A stretch of DNA of 29,078 nt from a virus (IMGVR_UViG_3300042879_005260:93514-122591); one strand, 5' to 3'. Numbered from the stretch's first letter, positions 26,861 through 28,612 are shown. A program made the numbers and translations. The notes: a model not told the origin generated them from the letters alone.

Positions 26861-27005
26861 TGCTAACGATACTCAGATATATTTAGGTTTTCTGATATTT
26901 ATATATAAAATAAAATTATGAGCAAAGAAATGAGACAACACATAGACAAATTTAACAAGTTTAAACTAACTGAATCAGAAAACTTGAATATATCTGATGT
27001 TAGTG
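26861..27005. repeat. attC-like site S23 (loop encodes phage promoter plus leader peptide)
   Basis: CAGATATATTTAGGTTTTC / GAAAACTTGAATATATCTG arms enclose ATATTTATA (26895) and the ATG (26918). Confidence 0.85.
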
Positions 27006-27223
27006 ATAGTGAAACAAAAATTATTCAAATTAAAAATGAATATTCTGAAATAGATAATCAATTAAAGGAATTACATAAAAAACAAAATCAATTAAGTAAA
27101 TCATTGAGAGAAGTTTTGGATAATGAAACAGATATTAACAAAAGAAAGGAAATCATTGATTTTGTTTTTGCTGATAAGGTTGAAGAAGTACATGAATATT
27201 CATTTAGAAAAATGTATTTATAA
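26918..27223 (+). CDS. Leader-body fusion gene (MSKEMR...LTESENLNISD-V-SDSE)
   Basis: The GTT core at 26999 is in frame. The body has no Met until near its end. Confidence 0.8.
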   Translation: MSKEMRQHIDKFNKFKLTESENLNISDVSDSETKIIQIKNEYSEIDNQLKELHKKQNQLSKSLREVLDNETDINKRKEIIDFVFADKVEEVHEYSFRKMYL

Positions 27224-27238
27224 TTTTTGTTTAATTAT

Positions 27239-27359
27239 CACTAACGGTTTGCGTATATACGCAGTGCGAAACTGAACTAAATTTGGAACACAAAACTTAA
27301 TATTATGATAAAAACTTGGATTGAAAAACTGAAAGCATTGCGTATATACGCTGTTATGT
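27239..27359. repeat. attC-like site S24 (loop carries a start codon)
   Basis: GCGTATATACGCAGTGC / GCATTGCGTATATACGC. Confidence 0.85.
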
Positions 27360-27502
27360 GTGGTTTTATTACTCATAAGCAATACTTAGATGGTTATAAA
27401 AAATATGTAGAAAGCTCGACAGATGAAGAAGTAGGTACATTTGATTGGTTTGTTTACTATTGTAAGAAAAACAAAGAATTTAGAATCGAGCATCTTGCTT
27501 AA
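27305..27502 (+). CDS. Cassette gene starting inside the hairpin (LRIYA-V-MCG junction)
   Basis: The GTT core at 27353 is in frame. Confidence 0.7.
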   Translation: MIKTWIEKLKALRIYAVMCGFITHKQYLDGYKKYVESSTDEEVGTFDWFVYYCKKNKEFRIEHLA

Positions 27503-27508
27503 AATCAC

Positions 27509-27637
27509 ACATAACGGTTTGGTGTATATGTAGTATGAGATTTGAAACACTAAACTCCACTTAACCACAAATGTTGATTAGAAGTAGAAACTTGGATTCA
27601 CCACTGAACCTCACATTACATATACACCTTGTTATGT
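27509..27637. repeat. attC-like site S25
   Basis: Close homolog of S2. Confidence 0.85.
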
Positions 27638-27683
27638 TGAACTAAAATTTAATTTCTTAATATTTATATATAAAGATAAAACT

Positions 27684-27989
27684 ATGAGTAAAGAAATGAG
27701 AGAACAAATAGACAGAGTAAAGAACTGGAAACAATTCTTGAATGAAGGTATAACATCAAAATACAATATTGGTGATGAAATTTTTTATCAGAATAGTAAA
27801 TGGAGTTATAAAGAAGGAAAAAACATTCTTACTAAAGAAAAAGCGACAATAGTTGATATGTATGATTATGATGATAAAAATTGGGGAACACTAAATGTTA
27901 GAGTTATACCTGAAAGAAAAGAATTGTGGGATAAAGACGGTGGTAGATGGATTAGCGAAACAGACATTATCTCAAAAGTGGGTGGGTAA
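27684..27989 (+). CDS. Cassette gene with MSKEMR...FLNE leader
   Basis: 101 aa. Promoter region and 3' end are shared with the 9970 cassette. Confidence 0.8.
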   Translation: MSKEMREQIDRVKNWKQFLNEGITSKYNIGDEIFYQNSKWSYKEGKNILTKEKATIVDMYDYDDKNWGTLNVRVIPERKELWDKDGGRWISETDIISKVGG

Positions 27990-28000
27990 AAAATTATTAC

Positions 28001-28130
28001 ACATAACGGTTACAAATAAATACAGTACGAAATATGAAAAAATTAGATAAAATTTTAGAAGATGTTAAAATCGGAGCAATAAACACAATTGATGCAAAAG
28101 AGCAAGTATTGGATTTATTTGTTGTTATGT
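28001..28130. repeat. attC-like site S26 (loop carries a start codon)
   Basis: CAAATAAATACAGTAC / GTATTGGATTTATTTG. Confidence 0.75.
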
Positions 28131-28231
28131 GTAGTGTTTGTAAAACTCCAATTAACTTGAAAGAAAATATTGTATATGACCCAAATTCTGAGCCATGTCA
28201 TAAAATATGTTACATAGAACATTACACATAA
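28034..28231 (+). CDS. Cassette gene starting inside the hairpin (LDLFV-V-MCS junction), CxxC...CxxC
   Basis: The GTT core at 28124 is in frame; the stop lies in the ACATAAC core. Confidence 0.7.
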   Translation: MKKLDKILEDVKIGAINTIDAKEQVLDLFVVMCSVCKTPINLKENIVYDPNSEPCHKICYIEHYT

Positions 28232-28361
28232 CGTTTCTTAGATATATTTAGGTTTTCTGATATTTATATATAAAACAAAATTATGGAACACGAAATGAGA
28301 AAATACATAGACACTTTCAAGGAACGACTGACAGAAAACTTGAATATATCTGATGTTATAC
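28226..28361. repeat. attC-like site S27 (loop encodes phage promoter plus leader peptide)
   Basis: Near-identical arms to S23; ATATTTATA at 28260, ATG at 28283. Confidence 0.85.
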
Positions 28362-28612
28362 AACGTTCAGTTTATCTATTGACAAACGATGGACATAGAG
28401 ATAGTGTAAATCTTCAACATTGTGCGATGGACGATGCGGGTTTGAAGAAAATCTTAATAGAGGAAATGTCTGAAATAGGACAATTTGTTATTGAGGATAC
28501 AATAGACATTAAACATAGTAGAACTGGTGGTTGGATTTTCTTCAAATACAAGGATTATGATGACGATGTTGAAGATGGGAAATGTGGGTTCTTCAAACTG
28601 AATGTTGTCTAA
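28283..28612 (+). CDS. Leader-body fusion gene (MEHEMR...LTENLNISD-V-IQRS)
   Basis: The GTT core at 28355 is in frame; the stop lies in the GTCTAAC core. Confidence 0.8.
   Translation: MEHEMRKYIDTFKERLTENLNISDVIQRSVYLLTNDGHRDSVNLQHCAMDDAGLKKILIEEMSEIGQFVIEDTIDIKHSRTGGWIFFKYKDYDDDVEDGKCGFFKLNVV

Follow-up and report, generated by a model that had tools for sequence, protein, structure and literature searches.

Hairpin sites that hold a gene start: a probable integron-like cassette system in T4-related giant phages

Can a recombination site also supply the start of the gene that it accompanies? The question is raised by two near-identical hairpins, S23 and S27, in the final 29 kb of a 122,591-bp IMG/VR virus record (IMGVR_UViG_3300042879_005260:93514-122591; this stretch of 29,078 nt is called the window below). 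A sequence-only reading had taken both for attC-like recombination hairpins that double as an expression and putative capsid-targeting adaptor, so that any ORF captured behind them would become a late, leader-tagged protein. We found that the anatomy of these sites is conserved, that they are read in frame, and that hairpin and body move jointly between TAAC limits. S23 and S27 are probably members of a widespread subfamily of attC-like hairpins, which belongs to an integron-like cassette system of T4-related giant phages.

The record is 51% complete according to CheckV and has a G+C content of about 30%. Comparison of the window with deposited phage genomes (megablast) gave no match and no close relative, and an Rfam search of the window gave no match either; among the cassette ORFs, none scored above the curated cut-offs of Pfam and PHROGs or was similar to a known family. 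The larger genes found beyond and between the arrays of hairpin sites (5984-7051 on the minus strand, and 15269-21998) encode an aminotransferase, a glucosaminidase-domain protein, a family-2 glycosyltransferase, two metallophosphoesterases and a carbon-nitrogen hydrolase.

Anatomy of S23 and S27

S23 occupies 26864-27002 on the plus strand (139 nt, from TAAC to GTTA) and is made up of a TAAC core, a 4-nt bulge, a 5' arm (26873-26896), a 77-nt loop, a 3' arm (26974-26997) and a GTTA core; its arms of 24 nt are 92% complementary. S27, the second site of this type (28229-28358, plus strand, 130 nt), also starts with TAAC and ends with GTTA, and has its 5' arm at 28238-28260 and its 3' arm at 28332-28353. 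The two sites share 83% identity over about 139 nt and differ by one base per arm, which bears out the near-identity of the arms noticed in the sequence-only reading. Both loops carry the promoter-like motif ATATTTATATATAAA (26895-26909 in S23, 28260-28274 in S27, plus strand), with an ATG 8 nt past the motif (26918 and 28283, respectively). From this ATG the leaders MSKEMRQHIDKFNKFKLTES and MEHEMRKYIDTFKERLT are read, followed by ENLNISDV, whose codons are those of the 3' arm and the GTT core; coordinates and translation thus agree for both sites with what had been claimed of loops and right arms.

The S23 ORF (26918-27223, plus strand, 101 aa) consists of the leader (26918-26977, ending with L-T-E), ENLNISDV (26978-27001), the residues SDS (27002-27010) from the box that follows the GTTA core (the x-box), and an ORFan body. 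The S27 ORF (28283-28612, plus strand, 109 aa) has the same layout, i.e. a leader ending with L-T-E, ENLNISDV, IQR from the x-box, and the body. Past GTTA the two bodies are unrelated, as had been stated, and the S23 body has its first in-frame ATG only at residue 99, so it indeed lacks a usable start of its own. Each cassette closes with a box complementary to its x-box (x') and a TAAC: for S23 these lie at 27234-27245 (plus strand), complementary to GTTAGTGATAGT at 26999-27010, and for S27 at 28601-28613 (plus strand), where the 48-nt site of the next cassette follows (to 28657).

The S23 body has no relative among the viral contigs. Homologues of the S27 body are encoded by two other viral contigs, each with a related leader; in the one the arm is decayed and the cores are mutated, and in the other the hairpin is absent. 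A fossil S27 cassette is seen in viral contig L131 (L131:1240-1770), with a decayed arm (NMNKSDF), the cores TTTA and TAGC, and no 5' arm.

A scan of the 122-kb record for hairpins anchored by TAAC and GTTA returned 16 strong pairs (14 distinct sites), all of them within the window, as compared to 0-1 in shuffled sequences. When folded as single-stranded DNA, S23 reaches z = -4.3 (none of 200 shuffles equals it), and S27 z = -1.6, a marginal value due to its 72-nt loop.

The site family and its recombinase

The window contains about 26 hairpin sites, arranged in two arrays (about 9580-14406 and 22716-28992). The second array is cut short by the end of the contig, probably at an assembly break in repeats. 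The 26 sites share a common fold. Its base stem, (A)TAACG / TGTTA(T), contains an invariant G.T pair; next come a 5'-side bulge of 3-4 nt and a long, imperfect stem, capped by a loop of 11 to about 80 nt. The plus strand gives the more stable fold in 23 of the 26 (Wilcoxon P = 9e-5). The bodies between the sites are bounded by complementary boxes, GTTA-x at the start and x'-TAAC at the end, and homologous cassettes show compensatory changes in these boxes (GTGATAGT with ATTATCAC versus GTGGTAGT with ATTACCAC). We note that the box past GTTA ends with AGT and its partner before TAAC with ATT (e.g. 26999-27245 and 14117-14406), a fixed G.T wobble on the plus strand.

Sites near S23 and S27 illustrate the range of arrangements. 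The adjoining site (27242-27356, plus strand) carries in its loop the ATG of ORF 27305-27502, and its cassette is found in another phage with unrelated flanks. The site at 27512-27634 (plus strand, 123 nt) is non-coding, and past it, not within it, lie the same promoter motif as in S23 and S27 (27660-27674) and an ORF of the same leader family (27684-27989, MSKEMRE...FLNE; the whole unit is 27660-27989, plus strand). Another site (28004-28127, plus strand) has the ATG of ORF 28034-28231 in its loop. In a near-identical metagenome contig (L155:1880-2245), the counterpart of ORF 27684-27989 appears, by gene calls only, as three short ORFs, and is possibly broken.

Between the two arrays lies a gene for a Xer-type tyrosine recombinase (14443-15249, plus strand, 268 aa), with integrase catalytic and SAM-like domains, which is likely the enzyme acting on the hairpin sites. 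It aligns end to end with Pyrococcus abyssi XerA (4A8E), whereas its alignment with Vibrio cholerae IntI4 (2A3V) is split into two blocks by a gap of about 48 missing residues; according to the latter alignment the additional domain specific to IntI is absent. Against the NCBIfam profiles, every score fell below the cut-off. At least 95 viral contigs encode a relative of this recombinase. Array 1 ends in an attI-like element (14402-14442, plus strand), in which the last x'-TAAC is followed by TA-N-ATATAT, 37 nt 5' of the recombinase ATG.

Conservation was counted over 29 recombinase loci with 10 kb on each side. Hairpin sites adjoin the recombinase in 26 of the 29 loci, lie almost always upstream of its gene (112 upstream, two downstream), and have the same orientation in 186 of 186 orientable sites. 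The array end, x'-TAAC with TA-N-ATATAT, is found in 24 of the 29 loci, some 35-45 nt before the start codon, with cassettes abutting the motif. Among 186 distinct sites, the TAAC and GTTA cores are invariant, as is expected in part of a scan that itself selects by TAAC(G)/GTTA; the stem columns show one to four, mostly three to four, Watson-Crick pair types each, and G.T pairs far exceed A.C pairs. An ORF starts inside the loop in 63 of the 186 sites. With about 26 sites in the window and the same layout in at least 29 related loci, the description of S23 and S27 as attC-like recombination hairpins in a recombinase-linked array is supported.

An S23-type site also adjoins the recombinase gene in L104:9925-10708 (the same contig as L047). 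The protein predicted there consists of the leader and ENLNISDVSES joined to a recombinase with a replaced N-terminal part, an arrangement that may represent a cassette inserted into the 5' end of the recombinase gene.

Reading frame and movement of the cassettes

The exact 26-nt 3' arm was found in 41 further viral contigs. The 5' arm with TAACG is present in about 37 of 46 copies and missing from about nine. In 44 of the 46 copies the frame from the loop ATG stays open for 34-219 codons beyond the junction (P about 1e-24, chance alone giving about 25%). The bodies sort into 34 mutually unrelated groups and are mostly acidic (median pI 5; median length 61 residues). A global protein collection adds 58 clusters with leader and junction, all of them unannotated. 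The F-N-E of the leader is preserved despite synonymous codon changes. In L115:3160-3396 and L070:5381, a 30-nt insert within the 3' arm, itself a small palindrome, is in frame (ENLN-GELSKSASSS-ISDV). Together, the open frames, the synonymous changes around F-N-E and the in-frame insert strongly indicate that the junction is translated. The 3' arm is invariant in 41 distinct contexts, synonymous positions included, which suggests that the DNA itself is also constrained. The arrangement is a general one: across the site family, 27 of 38 distinct arms have their GTT read as a codon in one standard frame (P = 2e-6). In the S23 subfamily the linker is ENLNISDV followed by SDS, RSS or IQR from the 8-nt box.

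Identical cassettes were observed in three to at least seven different array contexts, with limits exactly at the TAAC core. The exact 98-aa protein encoded at 28619-28915 of the window, in the cassette next after S27, is found in 21 contigs and at least seven neighborhoods, two of which place it right next to the end motif and the recombinase gene; in every copy of its cassette the homology runs from TAACG to x'-TAAC, and everything outside differs. The same limits apply to an S23-type cassette (leader, ENLNISDVSDS, DLFQEDSES body) seen in three neighborhoods, and cassette 27241-27519 is common to the window and contig L068, the flanks being unrelated. Since identical cassettes start at the 5' TAAC(G) and end at their own x'-TAAC, hairpin and body form one cassette. 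From these comparisons we take the unit to extend from the hairpin through its body to the closing x'-TAAC, with the crossover presumably at or next to the hairpin's 5' TAAC. Two further candidates for cassettes in multiple contexts, P0032 and P0047, were dropped as each has a single context.

Two artifacts or unrelated processes that might produce such patterns were rejected. Insertion of bodies or hairpins as MITE-like units does not apply, because removal of either unit restores no palindromic target. Mis-assembly was rejected as the source of the different contexts, because each flank-cassette junction is a unique sequence in independent samples. When the first 120 loci were searched for clean insertions or deletions of cassettes, only three events came up, none within an array. 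Counts of where homology ends were ambiguous, since the sites belong to repeated families.

On these data the system would consist of arrays of small cassettes facing the same way, together with a Xer-type tyrosine recombinase whose gene has a conserved end site next to it. The recombinase probably acts on the folded plus strand, to judge from plus-strand stability and the excess of G.T pairs. In the S23 subfamily the loop would have grown to take in the cassette's own promoter, start codon and conserved leader of 17-20 residues; translation of the 3' arm, GTT core and 8-nt box would yield a constant linker, from which the frame would continue into a variable, usually orphan, body.

The sequence-only reading assigned the crossover to another place, the GTT at the 3' side of a resident hairpin, so that any arriving cassette would be fused in frame to the leader. 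This would fit the one constant module before at least 34 unrelated bodies, the standard frame of GTT in 27 of 38 arms, and the presence of two loop/leader variants on a single body (L063 versus L115). However, identical cassettes always include their own 5' hairpin and start at its 5' TAAC, the array terminates at x'-TAAC beside the recombinase, and homology between copies continues through GTTA and 8 nt more; we therefore consider a resident acceptor improbable. Because hairpin and body move jointly, a foreign ORF could not land behind a resident leader by the recombinase reaction proposed here. The tagging of any captured ORF thus lacks support as far as movement by the recombinase is concerned: cassettes bring their own hairpin, leader and body from TAAC(G) to x'-TAAC, the leader is also seen with no hairpin, and the break in homology between copies falls past GTTA and the 8-nt box, not at GTT. 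The expression part of that reading is supported by a promoter-like motif, also present 5' of the head protease gene in relatives (see below), and by the open frames in 44 of 46 copies.

A quite different explanation dispenses with site-specific recombination. The hairpins could be regulatory modules only, similar to the PeSLs known in T4-type phages (PMC2839356, PMC4122927), serving as insulators or terminators with promoters and shuffled by homologous recombination, the nearby recombinase being unrelated. Sense-strand G.T pairs are also compatible with RNA structure, and two near-identical contigs, L138 and L139, have a breakpoint within a promoter -10 region. Against this stand the invariant cores, the conserved bulge and the strict orientation, the recombinase adjoining the sites in 26 of 29 loci, and cassette limits exactly at TAAC in many contexts, including an insertion by the end site. 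In addition, transcripts started by the loop promoter would lack the 5' arm, because the promoter is located inside the loop. We regard the purely regulatory explanation as having a small chance of being right, and keep the recombinase-linked cassette as the preferred reading. The L138 and L139 contigs part at position 2257, which is no core site but lies within the -10 region of the next gene's promoter; the event resembles a PeSL-style homologous or illegitimate exchange, and such events inside promoters imply that part of the shuffling is by homologous or illegitimate recombination. Homologous exchange between conserved arms and boxes is one candidate route by which a single module came to stand before many bodies; a crossover that now and then uses the other core, and events in the promoter, are further candidates.

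The leader and known systems

The same promoter and leader are also found past a hairpin instead of within it, both at 9946-10452 and 27660-27989 of the window and in a number of other phages, and a homologue of one tagged body reads MKRLKYIKRFNESNE, with no ENLNISDV. Because the leader thus occurs without a hairpin, it belongs to the proteins, and ENLNISDV with the next three residues is imposed by arm, core and box. The body shared by L063 and L115, mentioned above, has a different version of loop and leader in each. The leader ends with hydrophobic-x-Glu in 47 of the 49 sequences matched by the search pattern, often as F-N-E or L-T-E, the other two being non-members.

In T4, internal proteins are packaged via a 10-residue leader ending with L/I-x-E, after which the prohead protease gp21 cleaves, and the genes of these proteins vary among related phages (PMC9026906). 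Prohead protease and capsid genes were not found in the window's own 51%-complete record. In three complete relatives of 288-362 kb, however, a T4 gp21-type prohead protease (E = 1e-25 to 1e-31) is encoded, as is a gp23 capsid protein (E = 1e-63). In two of the complete relatives the motif ATATTTATAT lies directly upstream of the protease gene, which fits a late promoter, and the loop motif may act as one. Given the gp21-type protease and gp23 in this lineage and the hydrophobic-x-E ends, it is reasonable to suggest capsid targeting; the leader is plausibly a putative capsid-targeting signal, which would work as a T4-style propeptide cut after its hydrophobic-x-Glu end.

Alternatively, the leader may have nothing to do with the capsid: it could be a translation-initiation region common to these genes or the N-terminal helix of a large and rapidly evolving protein family, with ENLNISDV as the price of coding through a DNA arm. 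The invariance of the arm at synonymous sites in 41 distinct contexts, the acidic orphan nature of the bodies and the lack of similarity to any known family are all in line with this; preservation of the leader where the hairpin is absent or decayed, and the match of its hydrophobic-x-E end with the cleavage motif of gp21 in a lineage that encodes gp21, argue against it. We give this alternative a little less than an even chance. The widest form of the capsid-targeting proposal is a phage integron, in which sites in the 5' ends of genes would provide late promoter, start codon and capsid-targeting leader, and the arrays would be exchangeable libraries of proteins packed in the head and co-injected with the DNA, e.g. 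anti-defense factors, the standard GTT frame allowing occasional in-frame swaps of bodies behind the leader; we put this forward as a tentative idea, and rather doubtful in its entirety.

The closest known systems differ from the phage arrays in several respects. As in integrons, the sites are anatomically of the attC type (imperfect palindromes with conserved AAC...GTT cores, an unpaired bulge or other unpaired bases, and a variable loop), there is one small ORF per cassette, the arrays lie by a tyrosine recombinase of the Xer/IntI clade, a cassette recurs in different positions, and the cores flanking a body are mutually complementary. Seen on the other strand, the phage layout is that of an integrase, an end site, and cassettes with the site at their far end, the ORFs being reversed. 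Unlike in integrons, the phage recombinase is without the domain specific to IntI, each site is on the 5' side of its ORF (whereas integron attC is at the 3' end of the ORF), and the cassettes have promoter-like motifs of their own (integron cassettes are promoterless and share a common promoter); complementarity runs 8-22 nt past the cores, and one third of the sites are partly coding. Small attC clusters of two to four sites have been reported in phages (PMC9892861), as compared to dozens of sites in a T4-like giant phage here.

PeSLs likewise place a promoter and a stem-loop beside orphan ORFs in variable regions of T4-like genomes; their excision as mini-circles was proposed, and the authors explicitly compared them with integrons (PMC2839356, PMC4122927). 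PeSLs have neither a dedicated recombinase nor an invariant core, whereas the phage arrays have an invariant core and a linked recombinase, and the PeSL stem-loop precedes the promoter, whereas here promoter and gene start are inside the hairpin. With the T4 capsid-targeting sequence (CTS) the leader shares its short length, its presence at the N-terminus of unrelated small proteins that vary between related phages, and an L/I-x-E type of end, and a gp21-type protease is encoded in the lineage (three complete relatives). It differs in having 12-21 residues with no evident sequence similarity to the T4 leader, and its bodies are mostly acidic (median pI 5), whereas T4 internal proteins are basic. 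A structure-defined recombination site read as a peptide linker has a precedent in synthetic attC sites placed in coding sequence (PMC7439510), which are engineered; the phage version is natural and adds a promoter and a start codon. Our literature search turned up no account of T4-like phages with recombinase-linked arrays, nor of a natural recombination site containing a promoter and a gene start.

If the sites work as proposed, a natural recombination site would serve as promoter, translation start and peptide linker at once, previously achieved only by engineering (PMC7439510), and the variable regions of T4-like phages would have a dedicated recombinase mechanism of the kind that was sought, and not found, in the PeSL studies. 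If the leader targets the capsid, the arrays would amount to a catalogue of injected phage proteins, mostly with no function assigned. The phage system may also be relevant to the question of how integron cassettes acquire their sites.

Other proteins encoded by related contigs (L157:1-603; L138:1-1700) are one with PKD and Por_Secre_tail (type IX secretion) domains, which hints at a Bacteroidota host, and homologues of GrpE and DnaJ. Several of the samples are from freshwater.
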